Part shown: piece by piece, positions 9,959-52,973 of the stretch
Layout of the letters: the number at the start of each line of letters is the position of its first letter
How positions within the stretch are numbered: the first letter of the stretch is position 1
Source of the DNA: Eledone cirrhosa
Lineage: Eukaryota
Length of the DNA stretch: 64,000 bases
Assembly: GCA_964016885.1 (NCBI GenBank)
Contig: OZ024755.1
Location: 19,592,001 to 19,656,000 of the forward strand
Direction: 5' to 3'
Program-made: the position numbers and the translations under genes
Notes under the pieces: model-generated
The model's input: only the letters and a program-made list of their open reading frames with translations
Databases searched by the model: none
Told to the model about the DNA's origin: nothing

Positions 9959-10092
9959 AAGAGGGTATGGTAAGATACCAGGTGGACCATAACGCACCAG
10001 AGTACTCAATACTTAGGGTAATAGAATGGGTAATAGGAAAAGATTCGAAACGGCCGGCGCTCAGCCGTCGGGGTCCTGACTCTTTTCCTATT
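9953..10092. mobile_element. Family C copy with an internal inversion, between (TA)n tracts
   Basis: The inverted tail (about 9953-10043) is joined to forward GAAACGGCCGGCGCTCAGCCGTCGGGGTCCTGACTCTTTTCCTAT. Confidence 0.8.
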
Positions 10093-10819
10093 ATATATAT
10101 ATATATATAATTCATGTAATCTTTTCTTAAAAAGCCAGAATAGGAAAAATATCAGCGTCTCAATCAACAGAGGTAGTCAATGCTATCTTACATCCAGTTT
10201 CTTCACTAAGAAAAGAAGAGCCATTCCTTGAGGGAAGAAACCTTTGGAATCTTCAGATCTCTAAGAGATAAAAAAAAAATGGGAATATGAAATATGATTA
10301 TAATCAATGAAATATCCAAGGTTACACATTGCTCTTTCATGCAGATTTCTTCCAAATTATACTGGATCTAGAAGAAGTTAGTAAAATACAACTACAGCCG
10401 ATAAAACATGGATACCAACATGAGTATTGATTTTTTGTTTTTCACAATTAGGCAAGAGGTCGATTTTTGCTGGGGGATAGATGCTGTGATTCTATGACGA
10501 AGGAAAAGCAAAGTCGATTTTGGCAGGATTTATTATCGTATCTGAACAGATAAAAACGAAATCATTGCTTACATTGGCATCCAATCCTACATTAGGAGAG
10601 AGGACATTTAGTTAATTGAATAAAGAAGATACGTACCAGCTTCGTACTTATCGAGAGAAGGCGTATCAATATTAATTATCTATCGATATTGGATAATAGT
10701 GATAGAGAATTATTTATGACTTTTTAGTTAAGTATCAAGCAGAATGTTATTTTTGATGCGTACATCAGAACATAATATATCAGAAAAAAGAATTTATCTA
10801 TTGCAATATTTATGTAAAT

Positions 10820-12308: not shown

Positions 12309-12488
12309 AGGAAAAGAGTCAGGACCCCGACGGCTGAACTAGATCCGAACGTTCGGATCCAGCTGTCAAAACGGCCGGAGCTCAGCCGTCGGGGTCCTGA
12401 CTCTTTTCCTATTACCCACTCTACTACCCTAAGTATTGAGTACTCTGGTGGGTTATGGTCCACATGGTACCTTACCACACCCTCTTTG

Positions 12489-12490
<2 letters not shown>
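12309..12490 (+). mobile_element. Family C fold-back copy between (TA)n tracts
   Basis: Inverted repeat AGGAAAAGAGTCAGGACCCCGACGGCTGA...TCAGCCGTCGGGGTCCTGACTCTTTTCCT, followed by the family tail. Confidence 0.85.
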
Positions 12491-12558
<68 letters not shown>

Positions 12559-20830: not shown

Positions 20831-20949
20831 ATAGAAAAAGAGTCAGGACCCAGACGGCAGGGCTAAAGCCTTTTCGACTGCTATTTCAGTTCAAAGATAG
20901 CCGTCGACACGGCTTCAGCTCTGCCATCGGGGTCCTGACTCTTTTCCTA

Positions 20950-20950
<1 letters not shown>
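20831..20950. mobile_element. Family C fold-back copy (diverged) within (TA)n
   Basis: Imperfect palindrome ATAGAAAAAGAGTCAGGACCC...GGGTCCTGACTCTTTTCCTAT. Confidence 0.8.
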
Positions 20951-28662: not shown

Positions 28663-29382
28663 TATATATATATGAATATATGAATATGAATATATGAATA
28701 AATATATTTATGAATATATATATATGAATATATATATATATATGAATATATATATATATGAATATATATATGAATATATATATGAATATATATATATATA
28801 TATGAATATATATATATATATTATATATGAATATATATATTATATATGAATATATATATATTATATATGAATATATATATATTATATATGAATATATATA
28901 TATTATATATTAATATATATATATCTTCACTATTTGTACAAATATACAACTTAACAATATTCTGCATATCCGCAATTGATAATGCATTTAATGCTGAAAC
29001 CGGTATTGTAAATAAATTAATTGTTTCTACTTTTGGCACAAGGTCCGCAAATTACCCAGTGCATTACTGGTACTTTATTTTATCGACCCCGGAAGGATGA
29101 AAGCAAAGTATTGTAAATCAATTAATGCTTTAACATTTCACTAAAAATACATTTTCTACAGAAAAAAAACCACTCTTCCTTTCTACTATTTGTTTATATA
29201 TATATATATATATATAAATAAATATATATATATATATATTTCCTCCACCCCCTCTCCCTCTTTCTTCTACTGGCAGGTTCAGCTACCCCTTCCTTCCACA
29301 AATTGCCATTTTAGAATTATGTGTCTCAACAACAAACTTTTGACCAATCCTTGTGACAATCACTTTTACCATATATGGAATT

Positions 29383-29478
29383 ACCCCCTGAGAAGCTCGG
29401 CTATTCATATACCAGGATAAAAATTTTCATTTAGTCCAGAATTAGCCGTCGAAACGGCTTGAGCTCAGCCGTCGGGGT
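29383..29478 (+). ncRNA. Large type I hammerhead-like fold (family C) with one core substitution
   Basis: ACCCC-CTGAGAA-GCT-CGGCTA..TAGCCG-TC-GAAA-CGGCT-TGAGCTC-AGCCG-TC-GGGGT. All three stems are present; the core reads CUGAGAA instead of CUGANGA. Confidence 0.6.
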
Positions 29479-29569
29479 CCTACTCGTTCCTATTACCCAC
29501 TCTACTACCCTAAGTATTGAGTACTTTGGTGCGTTATGGTCCACCTGGTTCCTTACCACTTTTCCTTCG

Positions 29570-29571
<2 letters not shown>
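29383..29571 (+). mobile_element. Family C short element (hammerhead-like head plus ~95-bp tail) ending in (TA)n
   Basis: The tail CCTATTACCCACTCTACTACCCTAAGTATTGAGTACT..CCTTACCAC is shared with the copies at 9953, 12309, 44723, 45053 and 49055. Confidence 0.8.
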
Positions 29572-29629
<58 letters not shown>

Positions 29630-29812: not shown

Positions 29813-29993
29813 AAGGGCGGTGGATTGACAGTATCGGTAGAGGGTCGGACACAATGCTATGCAGTAAAGAGTTACGGCCCCTGAGTTCAAATCCCGCCGA
29901 GGTTAACTTTGCTTTTCATCCTTACGGGGTCGATAAAATAAAGCACCAGTAATACACTGGGATAATTGCTGGCCTTGTGCCAACAATTAGAAA
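29813..29993 (+). mobile_element. SINE family A, short form
   Basis: Same consensus, with a perfect 16-bp TSD CTATTATCTTTTACTA at 29797-29812 and 29994-30009. Confidence 0.92.
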
Positions 29994-30099: not shown

Positions 30100-30285
30100 T
30101 AATAATTTCTAATTTAGGCACAAGGCCAATAATTTGTGAGGACTGGAAGGTCATTACATTGACCCCAGTACGTAACTGGTACTTTATTTTGTCGACCCCG
30201 AAAGAATGAAAGGCAAAGCAGACTTTTGGTGGGATTTGAACTCAGGATTTAAAGATCCGGAATAAATGCCGCAAAGCATTTTCTC
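30100..30285 (-). mobile_element. SINE family A variant
   Basis: Reverse-complement consensus match. Confidence 0.8.
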
Positions 30286-33039: not shown

Positions 33040-36000
33040 ACCACCACACCACCACCACCACCACCACAACAACAACCACCAGTACACCAACACCACCACC
33101 ACAACAACTACTAGTAACAGCAACACAACCACAACCACCAGTACACCAACACCACCACCACAACAACTACTAGTAACAGCAACACAACCACAACCACCAG
33201 TACACCAACACCACCACCACAACAACTACTAGTAACAGCAACACAACCACAACCACCAGTACACCAACACCACCACCACAACAACTACTAGTAACAGCAA
33301 CACAACCACAACCACCAGTACACCAACACCACCACCACAACAACTACTAGTAACAGCAACACAACCACAACCACCAGTAACACCAACACCACCACCACAA
33401 CAACTACTAGTAACAGCAACACAACCACAACCACCAGTACACCAACACCACCACCACAGCCACTACTAGTAACAGCAACACAACCACAACCACCAGTACA
33501 CCAACACCACCACCACAACAACTACTAGTAACAGCAACACAACCACAACCACCAGTAACACCAACACCACCACCACAACAACTACTAGTAACAGCAACAC
33601 AACCACAACCACCAGTAACACCAACACCACCACCACAACAACTACTAGTAACAGCAACACAACCACAACCACCAGTACACCAACACCACCACCACAACAA
33701 CTACTAGTAACAGCAACACAACCACCACCACCAGTAACACCAACACCACCACCACAACAACTACTAGTAACAGCAACACAACCACAACCACCAGTACACC
33801 AACACCACCACCACAACAACTACTAGTAACAGCAACACAACCACCACCACCAGTAACACCAACACCACCACCACAACAACTACTAGTAACAGCAACACAA
33901 CCACAACCACCAGTACACCAACACCACCACCACAACAACTACTAGTAACAGCAACACAACCACCACCACCAGTAACACCAACACCACCACCACAACAACT
34001 ACTAGTAACAGCAACACAACCACAACCACCAGTACACCAACACCACCACCACAACAACTACTAGTAACAGCAACACCACCACAACCACCAGTACACCAAC
34101 ACCACCACCACAACAACTACTAGTAACAGCAACACAACCACAACCACCAGTACACCAACACCACCACCACAACAACTACTAGTAACAGCAACACAACCAC
34201 CACCACCAGTACACCAACACCACCACCACAACAACTACTAGTAACAGCAACACAACCACAACCACCAGTACACCAACACCACCACCACCACAACAACTAC
34301 TAGTAACAGCAACACAACCACAACCACCAGTACACCAACACCACCACCACCACAACAACTACTAGTAACAGCAACACCACCACAACCACCAGTACACCAA
34401 CACCACCACCACAACAACTACTAGTAACAGCAACACCACCACAACCACCAGTACACCAACACCACCACCACAACAACTACTAGTAACAGCAACACAACCA
34501 CAACCACCAGTACACCAACACCACCACCACAACAACTACTAGTAACAGCAACACAACCACAACCACCAGTACACCAACACCACCACCACCACAACAACTA
34601 CTAGTAACAGCAACACAACCACAACCACCAGTACACCAACACCACCACCACAACAACTACTAGTAACAGCAACACAACCACAACCACCAGTACACCAACA
34701 CCAACACCACAACAACTACTAGTAACAGCAACACAACCACAACCACCAGTACACCAACACCACCACCACAACAACTACTAGTAACAGCAACACAACCACC
34801 ACCACCAGTAACACCAACACCACCACCACAACAACTACTAGTAACAGCAACACAACCACAACCACCAGTACACCAACACCACCACCACAACAACTACTAG
34901 TAACAGCAACACAACCACAACCACCAGTACACCAACACCACCACCACAACAACTACTAGTAACAGCAACACAACCACAACCACCAGTACACCAACACCAC
35001 CACAACAACTACTAGTAACAGCAACACAACCACAACCACCAGTACACCAACACCACCACAACAACTACTAGTAACAGCAACACCACCACAACCACCAGTA
35101 CACCAACACCACCACCACAACAACTACTAGTAACAGCAACACAACCACAACCACCAGTACACCAACACCAACACCACAACAACTACTAGTAACAGCAACA
35201 CAACCACAACCACCAGTACACCAACACCACCACCACAACAACTACTAGTAACAGCAACACAACCACAACCACCAGTACACCAACACCACCACCACAACAA
35301 CTACTAGTAACAGCAACACAACCACAACCACCAGTAACACCAACACCACCACCACAACAACTACTAGTAACAGCAACACAACCACAACCACCAGTAACAC
35401 CAACACCACCACCACAACAACTACTAGTAACAGCAACACAACCACAACCACCAGTACACCAACACCACCACCACAACAACTACTAGTAACAGCAACACAA
35501 CCACAACCACCAGTACACCAACACCACCACCACAACAACTACTAGTAACAGCAACACAACCACAACCACCAGTACACCAACACCACCACCACAACAACTA
35601 CTAGTAACAGCAACACAACCACAACCACCAGTACACCAACACCACCACCACAACAACTACTAGTAACAGCAACACAACCACAACCACCAGTACACCAACA
35701 CCACCACCACAACAACTACTAGTAACAGCAACACAACCACAACCACCAGTACACCAACACCACCACCACAACAACTACTAGTAACAGCAACACAACCACA
35801 ACCACCAGTACACCAACACCACCACCACAACAACTACTAGTAACAGCAACACAACCACAACCACCAGTACACCAACACCACCACCACAACAACTACTAGT
35901 AACAGCAACACAACCACAACCACCAGTACACCAACACCACCACCACAACAACTACTAGTAACAGCAACACAACCACAACCACCAGTACACCAACACCACC

Positions 36001-39000
36001 ACCACAACAACTACTAGTAACAGCAACACAACCACAACCACCAGTACACCAACACCACCACCACAACAACTACTAGTAACAGCAACACAACCACAACCAC
36101 CAGTACACCAACACCACCACCACAACAACTACTAGTAACAGCAACACAACCACAACCACCAGTACACAACACCACCACCACCACAACAACTACTAGTAAC
36201 AGCAACACAACAACAACCACCAGTAACACCAACACCACCACCACAACAACTACTAGTAACAGCAACACAACCACAACCACCAGTACACCAACACCACCAC
36301 CACCACAACAACTACTAGTAACAGCAACACAACAACAACCACCAGTAACACCAACACCACCACCACAACAACTACTAGTAACAGCAACACAACCACAACC
36401 ACCAGTACACCAACACCACCACCACCACAACAACTACTAGTAACAGCAACACAACAACAACCACCAGTAACACCAACACCACCACCACAACAACTACTAG
36501 TAACAGCAACACAACCACAACCACCAGTACACCAACACCACCACCACAACAACTACTAGTAACAGCAACACAACCACAACCACCAGTACACCAACACCAC
36601 CACCACAACAACTACTAGTAACAGCAACACCACCACAACCACCAGTACACCAACACCACCACCACCACAACAACTACTAGTAACAGCAACACAACCACAA
36701 CCACCAGTACACCAACACCACCACCACCACAACAACTACTAGTAACAGCAACACAACCACAACCACCAGTACACCAACACCACCACCACAACAACTACTA
36801 GTAACAGCAACACAACCACAACCACCAGTACACCAACACCACCACCACAACAACTACTAGTAACAGCAACACAACCACAACCACCAGTACACCAACACCA
36901 CCACCACCACAACAACTACTAGTAACAGCAACACAACCACAACCACCAGTACACCAACACCACCACCACAACAACTACTAGTAACAGCAACACAACCACA
37001 ACCACCAGTACACCAACACCACCACCACAACAACTACTAGTAACAGCAACACCACCACAACCACCAGTACACCAACACCACCACCACACAACTACTAGTA
37101 ACAGCAACACAACCACAACCACCAGTACACCAACACCACCACCACACAACTACTAGTAACAGCAACACAACCACAACCACCAGTACACCAACACCACCAC
37201 CACAACAACTACTAGTAACAGCAACACCACCACAACCACCAGTACACCAACACCACCACCACAACAACTACTAGTAACAGCAACACAACCACAACCACCA
37301 GTACACCAACACCACCACCACAACAACTACTAGTAACAGCAACACAACCACAACCACCAGTACACCAACACCACCACCACAACAACTACTAGTAACAGCA
37401 ACACCACCACAACCACCAGTACACCAACACCACCACCACAACAACTACTAGTAACAGCAACACAACCACAACCACCAGTACACCAACACCACCACCACAA
37501 CAACTACTAGTAACAGCAACACAACCACAACCACCAGTACACCAACACCACCACAACAACTACTAGTAACAGCAACACAACCACAACCACCAGTACACCA
37601 ACACCACCACCACAACAACTACTAGTAACAGCAACACAACCACAACCACCAGTACACCACACCACCACACAACAACTACTAGTAACAGCAACACAACCAC
37701 AACCACCAGTACACCAACACCACCACAACACTACTAGTAACAGCAACACAACCACAACCACCAGTACACCAACACCACCACAACAACTACTAGTAACAGC
37801 AACACAACCACAACCACCAGTACACCAACACCACCACCACAACAACTACTAGTAACAGCAACACAACCACAACCACCAGTACACCAACACCACCACCACA
37901 ACAACTACTAGTAACAGCAACACAACCACAACCACCAGTACACCAACACCACCACCACAACAACTACTAGTAACAGCAACACAACCACAACCACCAGTAC
38001 ACCAACACCACCACCACAACAACTACTAGTAACAGCAACACAACCACAACCACCAGTACACCAACACCACCACCACAACAACTACTAGTAACAGCAACAC
38101 AACAACAACCACCAGTACACCAACACCACACCACAACAACTACTAGTAACAGCAACACAACCACAACCACCAGTACACCAACACCACCACCACAACAACT
38201 ACTAGTAACACCACCACAACCACAACCACCAGTACACCACACCACCACCACAACAACTACTAGTAACAGCAACACAACCACAACCACCAGTACACCAACA
38301 CCACCACCACAACAACTACTAGTAACAGCAACACAACCACAACCACCAGTACACCAACACCACCACCACAACAACTACTAGTAACAGCAACACAACCACA
38401 ACCACCAGTACACCAACACCACCACCACAACAACTACTAGTAACAGCAACACAACCACAACCACCAGTACACCAACACCACCACCACAACAACTACTAGT
38501 AACAGCAACACAACCACAACCACCAGTACACCAACACCACCACAACAACTACTAGTAACAGCAACACAACCACAACCACCAGTACACCAACACCACCACC
38601 ACAACAACTACTAGTAACAGCAACACAACCACAACCACCAGTACACACACCACCACCACAACTACTAGTAACAGCAACACAACCACAACCACCAGTACAC
38701 CAACACCACCACCACAACAACTACTAGTAACAGCAACACAACCACAACCACCAGTAACACCAACACCACCACCACGGCCACTAGTAACAGCAACACAACA
38801 CAACCACCAGTACACCAACACCACCACCACAACAACTACTAGTAACAGCAACACAACCACAACCACCAGTAACACCAACACCACCACCACAACAACTACT
38901 AGTAACAGCAACACAACCACAACCACCAGTACACCAACACACCACCACAACTACTAGTAACAGCAACACAACCACAACCACCAGTACACCAACACCACCA

Positions 39001-42000
39001 CCACAACAACTACTAGTAACAGCAACACAACCACAACCACCAGTACACCAACACCACCACCACAACAACTACTAGTAACAGCAACACAACCACAACCACC
39101 AGTACACCAACACCACCACCACAACAACTACTAGTAACAGCAACACAACCACAACCACCAGTACACCAACACCACCACCACAACTACTAGTAACAGCAAC
39201 ACAACCACAACCACCAGTACACAACACCACCACCACAACAACTACTAGTAACAGCAACACAACCACAACCACCAGTACACCAACACCACCACCACAACAA
39301 CTACTAGTAACAGCAACACAACCACAACCACCAGTACACCAACACCACCACCACAACAACTACTAGTAACAGCAACACAACCACAACCACCAGTACACCA
39401 ACACCACCACCACAACAACTACTAGTAACAGCAACACAACCACAACCACCAGTAACACCAACACCACCACCACGGCCACTAGTAACAGCAACACAACCAC
39501 AACCACCAGTAACACCACACCACCACCACAACAACTACTAGTAACAGCAACACAACCACAACCACCAGTAACACCAACACCACCACCACAACAACTACTA
39601 GTAACAGCAACACAACCACAACCACCAGTACACCAACACCACCACCACAACTACTAGTAACAGCAACACAACCACAACCACCAGTACACCAACACCACCA
39701 CCACAACAACTACTAGTAACAGCAACACAACCACAACCACCAGTAACACCAACACCACCACCACGGCCACTAGTAACAGCAACACAACCACAACCACCAG
39801 TACACCAACACCACCACCACAACAACTACTAGTAACAGCAACACAACCACAACCACCAGTAACACCAACACCACCACCACAACAACTACTAGTAACAGCA
39901 ACACAACCACAACCACCAGTACACCAACACCACCACCACAACAACTACTAGTAACAGCAACACAACCACAACCACCAGTACACCAACACCACCACCACAA
40001 CAACTACTAGTAACAGCAACACAACCACAAGTACACCAACACCACCACCACAACAACTACTAGTAACAGCAACACAACCACAACCACCAGTAACACCAAC
40101 ACCACCACCACAACAACTACTAGTAACAGCAACACAACCACAACCACCAGTACACCAACACCACCACCACAACAACTACTAGTAACAGCAACACAACCAC
40201 AACCACCAGTACACCAACACCACCACCACAACAACTACTAGTAACAGCAACACAACCACAACCACCAGTACACCAACACCACAACAACTACTAGTAACAG
40301 CAACACAACCACAACCACCAGTACACCAACACCACCACCACAACAACTACTAGTAACAGCAACACAACCACAACCACCAGTACACCAACACCACCACCAC
40401 AACAACTACTAGTAACAGCAACACAACCACAACCACCAGTAACACCAACACCACCACCACAACAACTACTAGTAACAGCAACACAACCACAACCACCAGT
40501 ACACCAACACCACCACCACAACAACTACTAGTAACAGCAACACAACCACAACCACCAGTACACCAACACCACCACCACAACAACTACTAGTAACAGCAAC
40601 ACAACCACAACCACCAGTACACCACCACCACAACAACTACTAGTAACAGCAACACAACCACAACCACCAGTACACCAACACCACCACCACAACAACTACT
40701 AGTAACAGCAACACAACCACAACCACCAGTACACCAACACCACCACCACAACAACTACTAGTAACAGCAACACAACCACAACCACCAGTACACCAACACC
40801 ACCACAACAACTACTAGTAACAGCAACACAACCACAACCACCAGTACACCAACACCACCACCACAACAACTACTAGTAACAGCAACACAACCACAACCAC
40901 CAGTACACCAACACCACCACCACAACAACTACTAGTAACAGCAACACAACCACAACCACCAGTACACCAACACCACCACAACAACTACTAGTAACAGCAA
41001 CACCACCACAACCACCAGTACACCAACACCACCACCACAACAACTACTAGTAACACCACCACAACCACAACCACCAGTACACCAACACCACCACCACAAC
41101 AACTACTAGTAACAGCAACACAACAACAACCACCAGTACACCAACACCACCACCACAACAACTACTAGTAACACCACCACAACCACAACCACCAGTACAC
41201 CAACACCACCACCACAACAACTACTAGTAACACCACCACAACCACAACCACCAGTACACCAACACCACCACCACAACAACTACTAGTAACACCACCACAA
41301 CCACAACCACCAGTACACCAACACCACCACCACAACAACTACTAGTAACAGCAACACAACAACAACCACCAGTACACCAACACCACCACCACAACAACTA
41401 CTAGTAACAGCAACACAACCACAACCACCAGTACACCAACACCACCACAACAACTACTAGTAACAGCAACACAACCACAACCACCAGTACACCAACACCA
41501 CCACAACAACTACTAGTAACAGCAACACAACAACAACCACCAGTACACCAACACCACCACCACAACAACTACTAGTAACAGCAACACAACCACAACCACC
41601 AGTACACCAACACCACCACCACAACAACTACTAGTAACAGCAACACCACCACAACCACCAGTTCACCAACACCAACACCACAACAACTACTAGTAACAGC
41701 AACACAACCACAACCACCAGTACACCAACACCACCACCACAACAACTACTAGTAACAGCAACACAACCACAACCACCAGTACACCAACACCACCACCACA
41801 ACAACTACTAGTAACAGCAACACAACAACAACCACCAGTACACCAACACCACCACCACCACAACTACTAGTAACAGTAACACCACCACAACCACCAGTAA
41901 CACCAACACCACCACCACAACAACTACTAGTAACAGCAACACAACCACAACCACCAGTACACCAACACCACCACCACAACAACTACTAGTAACAGCAACA

Positions 42001-43270
42001 CAACCACAACCACCAGTACACCAACACCACCACCACAACAACTACTAGTAACAGCAACACAACCACAACCACCAGTACACCAACACCACCACCACAACAA
42101 CTACTAGTAACAGCAACACAACCACAACCACCAGTAACACCAACACCACCACCACAACAACTACTAGTAACAGCAACACAACAACAACCACCAGTACACC
42201 AACACCACCACCACAACAACTACTAGTAACAGCAACACAACCACAACCACCAGTAACACCAACACCACCACCACAGCCACTAGTAACAGCAACACAACCA
42301 CAACCACCAGTAACACCACCACCACCACAACAACTACTAGTAACAGCAACACAACCACCACCACCAGTAACACCAACACCACCACCACAACAACTACTAG
42401 TAACAGCAACACCACCACAACCACCAGTACACCAACACCACCACCACAACAACTACTAGTAACAGCAACACAACCACAACCACCAGTACACCAACACCAC
42501 CACCACAACAACTACTAGTAACAGCAACACAACCACAACCACCAGTAACACCAACACCACCACCACAACAACTACTAGTAACAGCAACACAACCACAACC
42601 ACCAGTACACCAACACCACCACCACAACAACTACTAGTAACAGCAACACAACCACAACCACCAGTACACCAACACCACCACCACAACAACTACTAGTAAC
42701 AGCAACACAACCACAACCACCAGTACACCAACACCACCACCACAACAACTACTAGTAACAGCAACACAACCACCAGTACACCAACACCACCACAACAACA
42801 ACAACTACTAGTAACAGCAACACAACCACAACCACCAGTAACACCAACACCACCACCACAACAACTACTAGTAACAGCAACACAACCACAACCACCAGTA
42901 ACACCAACACCACCACCACCAGTAACACCAACACCACCACCACCAGTAACACCAACACCACCACCACCACCACCAGTAACACCAACACCACCACCACCAG
43001 TAATACCACCACCACCACCACCAGTAACACCAACACCACCACCACCAGTAATACCAACACCACCACCACAACCACCAGTAACACCAACACTACCACCACC
43101 ACCACCACAACAACAACCACCAGTACACCAACACCACCACCACAACAACTACTAGTAACAGCAACACAACCACAACCACCAGTAACACCAACACCACCAC
43201 CACAGCCACTAGTAACACCACCACAACCACAACCACCAGTACACCAACACCAACACCACAGCCTCTAGTA
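33040..43270. repeat. About 10-kb satellite array with a 59/60-bp unit
   Basis: Unit CCAGTA(A)CACCAACACCACCACCACAACAACTACTAGTAACAGCAACACAACCACAACCA, roughly 170 copies. Confidence 0.98.
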
Positions 43271-44722: not shown

Positions 44723-44726
<4 letters not shown>

Positions 44727-44931
44727 GAACGAGTAGGACCCCGACGGCTGAGCTCAAGCCGTTTCGACGGCTAATTCTGGATTATTTTTTTAGTCCAGAA
44801 TTAGCCGTCGAAACGGCTTGAGCTCAGCCGTCGGGGTCCTACTCGTTCCTATTACCCACTCTACTACCCTAAGTATCGAGTACTCTGGTGCGTTATGGTT
44901 CACCTGGTTCCTTACCACACTTTCTTTGTTT
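44723..44931 (+). mobile_element. Family C fold-back copy within (TA)n
   Basis: Near-perfect inverted repeat 44723-44852 (about 59-bp arms) followed by the family tail. Diverged relatives lie at about 45053-45140 (+) and 49055-49130 (-). Confidence 0.85.
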
Positions 44932-44940
44932 ATATATATT

Positions 44941-45053
<113 letters not shown>

Positions 45054-45159
45054 TGAATTAGCTGTCGAAGCAGCAAGTCAGGCCTCGACTCTTTCTAATA
45101 TAGTTACACTCTACTATCCCAAGTATCGAGTACTCTGTTGAACAATAGTGAAATCCTAA

Positions 45160-48867: not shown

Positions 48868-49881
48868 GAAAGTGTGCACTCTGACCAGCTGGGTTAGAAT
48901 CTTAATAATACGAACTTAATTGGTCATTGAGTTAGTGAGGAAACGATCGAAGCTATGTCCTTTCTATTTGACATACTTCGCCTCTGAGTTACACCCCCCC
49001 CATATATATATATATCAGGATTATACCAGTTTTAAACAAGTAAGACCGTTATTCAGCAGAGTACTTGATACTTGGGATAGTAGAGTGTAAATATAATACA
49101 GAGTTGGGTCCCGACGGTAGAGCTAATTCTATATAGATTTGTTGAGGTAAGTCAAATCTATGGCCTGTTAATCAGGAGTATTTCATGTATGATCACAAGG
49201 TCACCATTCGCAGAAATCTGGAAAACTACACAACAAGTGTCATTTCTAAATCTAGTGCAAATTTTTACATTTTTTCTCAGACGCTTCTATTGATTTACAG
49301 TTGATTTTCCATTTAACAGAAAGTAAAATACTATTGCTGTGACATTTAATCTATATGTACGCAAAAGCACACACACATACATCTATATACATGCATGCAC
49401 ATACCATCAGCTTTATAGGTCGTTACATCCATCGTATTGAAGCTTGTTGATATATTTTTGTTATATTTTTCTACTTTTCCATTGAATCTTTTCACCTGCC
49501 AATCAACGTTTAACTCCATGCTGACGTGATGATGAATGGAAAAAAATTGAATCCATTTTGAACTCAATTCCTAACTCTATAATCGAAACGGTTTCAGCTG
49601 AACTGTAGGGCTTACCTATCTTGTCATATGTATATATATATATATATAGCAATAATAATAATAAATGTGAAGACTAAAATCCAAAGAGGGCGTTCACAGA
49701 TTGATATTTTTAATTTCAGAAGATCCCGTTAAGGCTGAAAGCAGCGATTCTTTGCTTAAACTTTAATCTGTTATTTTAATGTATGTATGTATGTATGTAT
49801 GTATGTATGTATGTATGTATGTATGTATGTATGTATGTATGTATGTATGTATGTATGTATGTATGTATGTATGTATGTATT

Positions 49882-52769: not shown

Positions 52770-52973
52770 TAACAGATTAAAGTTTAAGCAAAGTATCGCT
52801 GCTTTCACCCTTAACGGGATCTTCTGAACCAGTTAAGGGCGAAAGCAGCGATTCTTTGCTTAAACTTTAATCTGTTATTTTAATAAATATTTCCTCTACG
52901 GTTCTTATATATTTGATATATATTTATCCTTATCGAGCCCTCTTTGGATTTTAGTCTTCAAATTTATTATTAT

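Follow-up and report, generated by a model that had tools for sequence, protein, structure and literature searches.

In the 64,000-nt stretch of Eledone cirrhosa DNA analysed here (the window), a 5'-truncated, one-armed retrotransposon copy of 335 bp was found on the plus strand at positions 29239-29573, consisting of the end of a 3' UTR, a hammerhead motif and a tail. The copy is bordered by a (TA)n-rich target on its 5' side (29194-29238, the start being approximate) and by a (TA)n target on its 3' side (29574-29628), and its last 80 nt (29494-29573, plus strand) form a tail with an outer fixed 3' end at 29573. Based on sequence and pairing, the motif at 29383-29478 is a type I hammerhead near the 3' end of this Penelope-like copy: its core is surrounded by three stems arranged as in type I, and it has an NUH triplet.

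All parts of the hammerhead lie on the plus strand. The 5' strand of stem I (29377-29387, from sequence and predicted fold) and its 3' strand with the closing TTCC (29474-29493) pair through ACCCC 29383-29387 and GGGGT 29474-29478, and further out through GGAA 29377-29380 and TTCC 29487-29490, an extension that the original prediction had missed; an internal loop is predicted within this stem. The catalytic core C3 U4 G5 A6 G7 A8 A9 (CTGAGAA, 29388-29394) carries a C3.A8 mismatch. It is followed by the stem II domain (29395-29450), composed of the G10.1-C11.1 pair (G29395-C29450), a 2x1 internal loop, a helix of CGGCTA 29398-29403 with TAGCCG 29443-29448 and a large apical part. The stretch 29451-29473 then holds the core element GAAA (29451-29454), a 6-bp stem III of ACGGCT 29454-29459 with AGCCGT 29467-29472 closed by the loop TGAGCTC, and the cut triplet GTC (29471-29473), with the cut predicted after 29473; the strand is near-palindromic, with TGAGCTCA. 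The stems, the core and the GAGCTC loop were all found where the original prediction had placed them and paired as it had claimed, whereas of its overall extent, 29383-29571, only the ribozyme part held, since 29479-29571 is the end of the retrotransposon and its tail. Searching with a type I descriptor allowing Y3/R8 returned this single match in the 64-kb window and 0 matches across 100 doublet shuffles. The folding energy of the motif was unremarkable against shuffles (z -0.53, -1.26 and -1.05), and no hammerhead family was seen among the 150 Rfam matches listed of 259 in a scan of the window.

BLAST within the window revealed four two-armed related insertions (9968-10093, 12313-12494, 20837-20950 and 44723-44930), two degenerate ones (45049-45140 and 49054-49124) and one weak match (49583-49610, E 0.4). 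The count of seven related copies given earlier was thus fair, although none of these insertions contained the 5' core. Other repeats were also observed. A 59-nt satellite with extreme C/A strand skew occupies 33065-43122 in about 172 copies (95% matches), and short repeat pieces noted by eye at 29040-29110, 29880-29960 and 30150-30240 resemble what we take to be a tRNA-derived SINE. A long inverted repeat at 52776-52871, which has a similar sequence near 49725, gave a weak score to a microRNA model and is probably a small DNA-transposon-like hairpin.

The window copy shares 95-98% identity with the ends of long copies that carry an ORF, and at least 40 copies in the 3.0-Gb genome are 98-100% identical to the window stretch. 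In the 30 best copies fetched, (TA)n stood at one fixed end point in all 30, and many had an inverted arm ending at a second fixed point 80 nt earlier. The ORF of the long copies lies ~1.1 kb upstream of the hammerhead repeat. Many copies that reach the ORF start have the same repeat, ribozyme and tail directly before the ORF, and in full-length copies the tail runs on, with the ORF starting ~90 nt later. At locus L342, an open 740-aa ORF is enclosed by C3.A8 repeats at both ends in a unit of ~3.57 kb, the only ORF above 500 aa among the 18 loci examined. This full-length copy (L342:1539-3758), in which the ORF is uninterrupted, has YHDD where YRDD is usual.

Pfam and PDB sequence searches with the 740-aa ORF came back blank, and its identity rests on a fold search and on motifs. 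The predicted model (pLDDT 90.4) matched reverse transcriptases in the fold search, with telomerases at ranks 2 and 4, and one relative bears the name RT-domain protein. A GIY-YIG-type nuclease at the C-terminus was recognised from motifs alone; it has one C between its GIY and YIG halves and the arrangement CNLC-EE-N-CKH, that is, CxxC and CxH round E and N. The ORF also contains RWR, DKT and a CNCPDGSIC linker, the last C of which is F in L342, and has no CCHH. A single ORF combining a telomerase-like RT with a C-terminal nuclease is the mark of an EN+ Penelope-like element (PLE), and further EN+ hallmarks were found, namely pseudo-LTRs with a hammerhead, partial tandem and inverted 5'-truncated copies and a one-ended tail.

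The Hydra clade of PLEs is defined by an RWK-like motif, DKT, CxCX5C, the lack of CCHH and CxxC/CxH flanking E and N (PMC8557442). As described there, Hydra-clade elements including Hydra-1_Obim have in common with the Eledone element the C-terminal endonuclease, RWx, DKT, CxCX5C, the missing CCHH, CxxC/CxH round E and N, a (TA)n target and a hammerhead near the 3' end. By its motifs and (TA)n target, with named elements compared by eye, the element is an autonomous Hydra-clade Penelope-like retrotransposon. Neptune-clade membership was ruled out, as there is neither CCHH inside the nuclease nor a CX2-5CxxC linker. A non-LTR retrozyme was also ruled out by the autonomous ORF and the dispersed inverted arms, where a retrozyme would consist of tandem monomers, each 200-600 nt long and non-coding. 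Tandem copies had been suggested as a search target in the original prediction; in the loci examined, short tandem arrays were absent. Likewise, the 5-6 bp of stem III excluded a minimal dimer-only PLE hammerhead, in which this stem is absent or 1-2 bp, although the strand is still near-palindromic. The original reading of the motif as a large PLE hammerhead of type I, with a stem III longer than in minimal PLE hammerheads, was borne out.

To define the family, we used the core pattern N3-TGA-N7-R8-A upstream of a GAAA half, which gave 6,762 matches genome-wide (control 1), in line with the abundance claimed earlier. A8 was found in 6,688 of these cores and G8 in only 74, GAAA being set by the search pattern, so the check proposed originally, whether a genome-wide consensus restores CUGANGA, failed as it was worded. 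The majority core is UUGANAA, with a U3-A8 pair. This outcome does not refute the hammerhead, because the majority core is a compensated form: the 3-8 pair is Watson-Crick in the family majority (U3-A8) and mismatched (C3.A8) in the window copy and its subfamily. Among the first 100 cores listed, counted by eye, position 3 was U in 78, C in 20 and G in 2, and position 7 took all four bases. A variable position 7 together with a conserved A8 is what a hammerhead core shows when aligned in this register.

The CTGAGAA core with its flanks occurred in 956 exact copies, among 1,388 in the genome when the core was left open. The window copy thus belongs to an amplified C3.A8 mismatch subfamily and is not the product of private damage. 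Of the two possibilities raised originally, a dead copy or a natural variant, the second is correct, and death by private decay is not. In DNA contigs, which served only for letter variants and a depth step, T was seen at 29388 in about half to two thirds of the depth, and no variant was present at 29393 among the 40 of 55 contig variants listed. At least two subfamilies with C3.A8 were amplified. In older relatives the combination is U3.G8, and distant relatives, which carry CUGAUGA in the same frame, have C3-G8 with the same GAGCTC loop. Across 38 picked relatives, positions 3 and 8 were paired in 32 (UG in 17, UA in 9 and CG in 6). A U3-A8 variant has been published for Schistosoma Cercyon elements (PMC4209133), and U3-A8 hammerheads are stated to be active in vitro (PMC3088659). 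One distant U3.G8 relative (L194, on the unplaced contig C440) appears four times at ~26.5-kb spacing within a larger tandem unit, and the DNA downstream of it looks like another RT fragment.

The predicted share of the active hammerhead fold of the window copy was only 0.001-0.003, because AGCCGU is present at two places and a hairpin spanning GAAA prevails. This competing hairpin, AGCCGT-CGAA-ACGGCT (29444-29459, plus strand), has predicted pair probabilities of 0.7-0.85 and would sequester the GAAA core; AGCCGU/ACGGCU was also the only consensus helix that RNAalifold returned across the 38 relatives. Pairing of the stem III strand with a second copy was computed at -30.7 kcal/mol, whereas two separate hairpins would give 2 x -7.1. 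The earlier proposal that this copy could fold as a monomer was therefore not supported, the competing hairpin being dominant in the prediction; a monomer fold is possible, though unfavoured by these models, which ignore tertiary contacts. Across the 38 relatives, 82.6% of stem cells were paired, with two-sided changes at 5 of 12 pairs in stem II, 1 of 5 in stem I and 0 of 6 in stem III. The covariation score was reached by 1 of 500 shuffles, and the number of two-sided pairs (6, versus 5.6 in shuffles) by 257 of 500. The main C3.A8 and UUGAUAA groups both have the competing hairpin. In the youngest subfamily the predicted active share rose from 0.003 to 0.47 after two stem changes. In addition to U3, this L158-type subfamily acquired an A-U pair at position 10.2 and, in stem III, a C-to-U substitution by which the competing fold is weakened; the hammerhead is the predicted minimum-energy fold of this subfamily.

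A tree was built from 56 copies, each locus contributing a single arm; positions 3 and 8 were masked, and C3.A8 rows shorter than 600 nt were excluded. It showed a ladder with starred support, from U3.G8 through old U3-A8 to C3.A8, with the young U3-A8 copies nested inside C3.A8. A second tree gave the same ladder, and in it the distant C3-G8 relatives joined near the young copies by a long branch. Within-group spread fell along the ladder from 13-16% to 6% to 2.6%. The AU test rejected a single clade of all U3 copies (p 1.6e-11, for a group named after seeing the tree). These data point to a master lineage that passed from U3.G8 to U3-A8, to C3.A8 and back to U3-A8, a direction read from branch lengths with no reliable outgroup.

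The 17-mer after the cut site occurred 21,199 times in the genome, ~15 times the number of whole cores. Most arms end at a 5' wall inside loop II (29429-29440, plus strand, starting from the A of TCATTT), recognised from arm ends and from a depth step in the contigs. Of 88 window-type arms, 82 ended at or 3' of 29429, 69 of them within 29429-29440; all 36 youngest-type arms ended at or 3' of 29429, 24 of them at the wall. The arm sample left out copies known to be long or near the cut site, and thus shows the wall, not proportions. About 7% of arms extend past the entire ribozyme and reach the 3' UTR or ORF, as the window copy does, and 1-2% stop at G29474, a minor 5' end. On the other side, the fixed 3' ends are an inner one at 29493, used by tail-less arms, and the outer one at 29573. 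In a third class of junction, the turning point is the middle of the stem III palindrome (L113, L114, L120, L121 and others); by eye, among the first 100 short fold-backs of each group, this class accounted for 59 in the C3.A8-rich group and 26 in the youngest group.

The wall is likely a transcription start inside loop II. It begins at the A of TCATTT in the window type and of TCAGT in the sister subfamily, words that we take to be initiator-like from the Drosophila consensus. In addition, three insertions (L085, L107 and L128) carry runs of 13-16 T on the sense strand between arms at the equivalent of window 29430, as if a telomerase-like RT had slipped at the end of its template. Penelope of D. 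virilis also has an internal promoter in its repeat (PMC2377424). A splice acceptor was ruled out as the cause, as many arms end upstream of the AG. The wall could instead be a host nuclease cut in the apical loop or a structural stop, leaving the account of the ribozyme unchanged. It does lie at the loop of a predicted apical hairpin, and no extra, cap-derived G was seen before six arms ending at 29429. The initiator-like word, the promoter of the D. virilis repeat and the poly-T runs, which fit a template end, nevertheless argue against a nuclease or stop, and we regard this explanation as rather unlikely.

Ends at the cut site stood out from their surroundings: 1,077 matches had two foreign bases before GGGG, compared with 132 at a point four bases upstream, although 25 of the first 100 listed of the 1,077 were G-run expansions and not ends. 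We then compared subfamilies, which were assigned by 3' tags; whole cores were C3.A8 in 21 of 28 and 5 of 6 copies of the two mainly C3.A8 groups, and U3-A8 in 5 of 5 and 5 of 5 copies of the two U3-A8 groups. Perfect fold-backs at the cut site numbered 24 of 18,656 (0.13%) and 1 of 3,026 (0.03%) in the C3.A8 groups, versus 93 of 15,634 (0.59%) and 48 of 5,983 (0.80%) in the U3-A8 groups. Cut-site DNA ends are thus ~5 times rarer in the C3.A8 subfamily than in sister subfamilies with the pair intact, although the U3-A8 groups are sister clades and the C3.A8 groups tree neighbours, which amounts to about one evolutionary contrast, the strength of which is overstated by small p-values from counts. 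The main C3.A8 and UUGAUAA groups are of similar age (spread 6.0-6.8% versus 6.0%) and do not differ in sequence around the cut site. Under a looser measure, the C3.A8 and U3-A8 groups differed only 1.6-fold (190 of 18,656 versus 256 of 15,634). Junctions with one A or T between CCCC and GGGG, an addition that needs an end exactly at 29474, were counted by eye at 6 of 18,656 versus 15 of 5,983. In an older U3-A8 group, 13 fold-backs were found, a bare count that speaks neither for nor against the contrast, and a flank census of this group gave 0 exact matches in 0.55 Mb.

These ends bear on whether the motif cuts at all. It might be a non-cutting relic in all subfamilies, its sequence kept as a promoter and as a protein-binding RNA 5' end, with the G29474 ends arising from RT stalling at the foot of stem III and template switching by G-run or CG microhomology; CG microhomology can indeed also make CCCC/GGGG junctions. 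In keeping with a relic, the long mismatch period still made about 19,000 copies, the sole consensus helix across the 38 relatives is the competing hairpin, the active fold is predicted to be a minority conformation in most subfamilies, and ribozyme mutants of an Anolis element insert normally in vitro (PMC11167929). We nonetheless find a relic unlikely, as the five- to sixfold difference in exact cut-site fold-backs tracks the 3-8 pair while the local sequence is the same, the one-A/T junctions need ends at 29474, and position 7 varies freely, in contrast to the other core bases, which are conserved. Taken together, the genomic ends suggest that cleavage by the motif takes place in living cells, but is not required for the spread of the element.

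Copies of the C3.A8 type still show cut-site ends, with 13 of 16 tails being of the main type. A tail marker separating C3.A8 from its U3 sister was too rare to divide these copies between the two, being found in 0 of 23 copies in general sets and, in cut-site sets, in 1 of 16 and 0 of 7. The C3.A8 form is thus not simply dead, or else it is cut by another copy. These ends, the amplification of C3.A8 in at least two subfamilies and the ability of tertiary contacts to offset variant cores (Perreault 2011) would also fit a fully working C3.A8 core, for example through a protonated A.C wobble assisted by tertiary contacts or protein, cutting efficiently as a monomer, with the fewer cut-site ends due to other differences between lineages. 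Against such a core stand the lowest fold-back counts in both C3.A8 groups, the return of the lineage to U3-A8, the loss of cutting upon C3G or G8C alone in the Anolis element (PMC11167929) and a monomer fold predicted at 0.1-0.3%, and it seems to us quite improbable. The family majority is a compensated variant and the subfamily of the window copy a mismatched one, and the C3.A8 mismatch likely leaves the hammerhead of this subfamily only weakly active.

On balance, we think it probable that the motif is a type I hammerhead in the pseudo-LTR of a Hydra-clade PLE, belonging to a likely weakly active C3.A8 mismatch subfamily of a family whose majority is U3-A8. According to this scheme, RNA would start mostly at ~29429 inside loop II, and the 5' RNA end would carry the substrate half only; the whole ribozyme would be present only in the downstream repeat or in read-through RNA. 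The element RT, primed at a (TA)n nick, would start at 29493 or 29573 and copy towards the RNA 5' end, as in the mechanism of PMC11167929. Copying would often proceed from both sides to give the inverted arms, the footprint of which is seen here and the mechanism of which is taken from the same source. Most arms stop at the 5' wall, as observed, with smaller classes reading through the ribozyme or ending at G29474. The last class may be copied from self-cleaved RNA, cut in cis, as a stem III dimer or with the help of an element protein. From the tree and branch lengths, the master lineage appears to have kept spreading through its C3.A8 phase, and spreading through a mismatch phase implies that efficient cutting is not needed for transposition.

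Different from the Hydra-clade hammerheads in File S2 of PMC8557442, all 26 rows of which have C3 and G8, the Eledone family is U3-A8 or C3.A8. In the hammerheads of that file, stem II is short and stem III has 3-4 bp closed by a loop of 1-3 nt, whereas those of the Eledone family have a stem III of 5-6 bp with a 7-nt loop and a stem II domain of ~55 nt. The Eledone unit of 3.57 kb also exceeds the <3 kb given for the Hydra clade, and the hammerhead of Hydra-1_Obim differs in sequence (PMC8557442). With PLE pseudo-LTR hammerheads as described in PMC4209133, the family shares the type I form, the flanking repeats, a long stem II, a short stem I, G10.1-C11.1, a palindromic stem III region, inverted pairs 100-700 bp apart and U3-A8 covariation. 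According to the same source, metazoan PLE hammerheads have little or no stem III, a large one being found in fungi and protists; the variants described in the text consulted include neither an amplified, unpaired C3.A8 state nor a step through U3.G8. As in Poseidon of Anolis (PMC11167929), two fixed RT starts define the tail, the targets are AT-rich, uncut RNA is the main template and the ribozyme is unneeded for insertion. The Eledone tail is 80 nt long, and the ORF starts downstream of the tail, compared with inside the ribozyme in Poseidon; for Poseidon, no RNA or reads ending at the cut site were found in that study, which counts against cutting as the source of such ends, whereas a minority of Eledone genomic copies end there. 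Metazoan non-LTR retrozymes (PMC7229834; bioRxiv 10.64898/2026.07.22.740005) likewise have a type I hammerhead and a link to PLE repeats, but are non-coding tandem monomers in these accounts, while the Eledone family encodes its own 740-aa ORF, is autonomous and showed no short tandem arrays in the loci examined.

The element class, hammerheads in Hydra elements, the U3-A8 swap and the two-ended footprint were thus already known. In our search of the open-access literature, neither PLE families with C3.A8 or U3.G8 nor insertions ending at the cut site came up; an amplified core with a mismatch, a stepwise change of the 3-8 pair and cut-site insertions that track this pair were not found there. 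Descriptors based on CUGANGA miss about 99% of this family of >6,000 whole motifs.

The function of PLE hammerheads was called unclear by Craig 2021 (PMC8557442), and Frangieh 2024 reported the PLE hammerhead to be unnecessary in vitro (PMC11167929). For asking whether these ribozymes cut in cells, and for what purpose, this family offers matched natural versions, namely U3.G8, U3-A8, C3.A8 and the youngest form with its better predicted folding, and the genomic count predicts their rank order of activity. As a tentative proposal, which we put forward with some doubt, the copies, which number in the tens of thousands, may form a fossil record of ribozyme activity, in which the 3-8 pair of a single retrotransposon lineage went through C-G, U.G, U-A, C.A and U-A, the self-cut share fell and then rose with repair, and RNA would start inside the ribozyme so that its 5' end could be cut only by a second copy. 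If true, this record would be the first in vivo read-out of cutting by Penelope hammerheads, showing also that they can be done without for a time and are then restored by selection.
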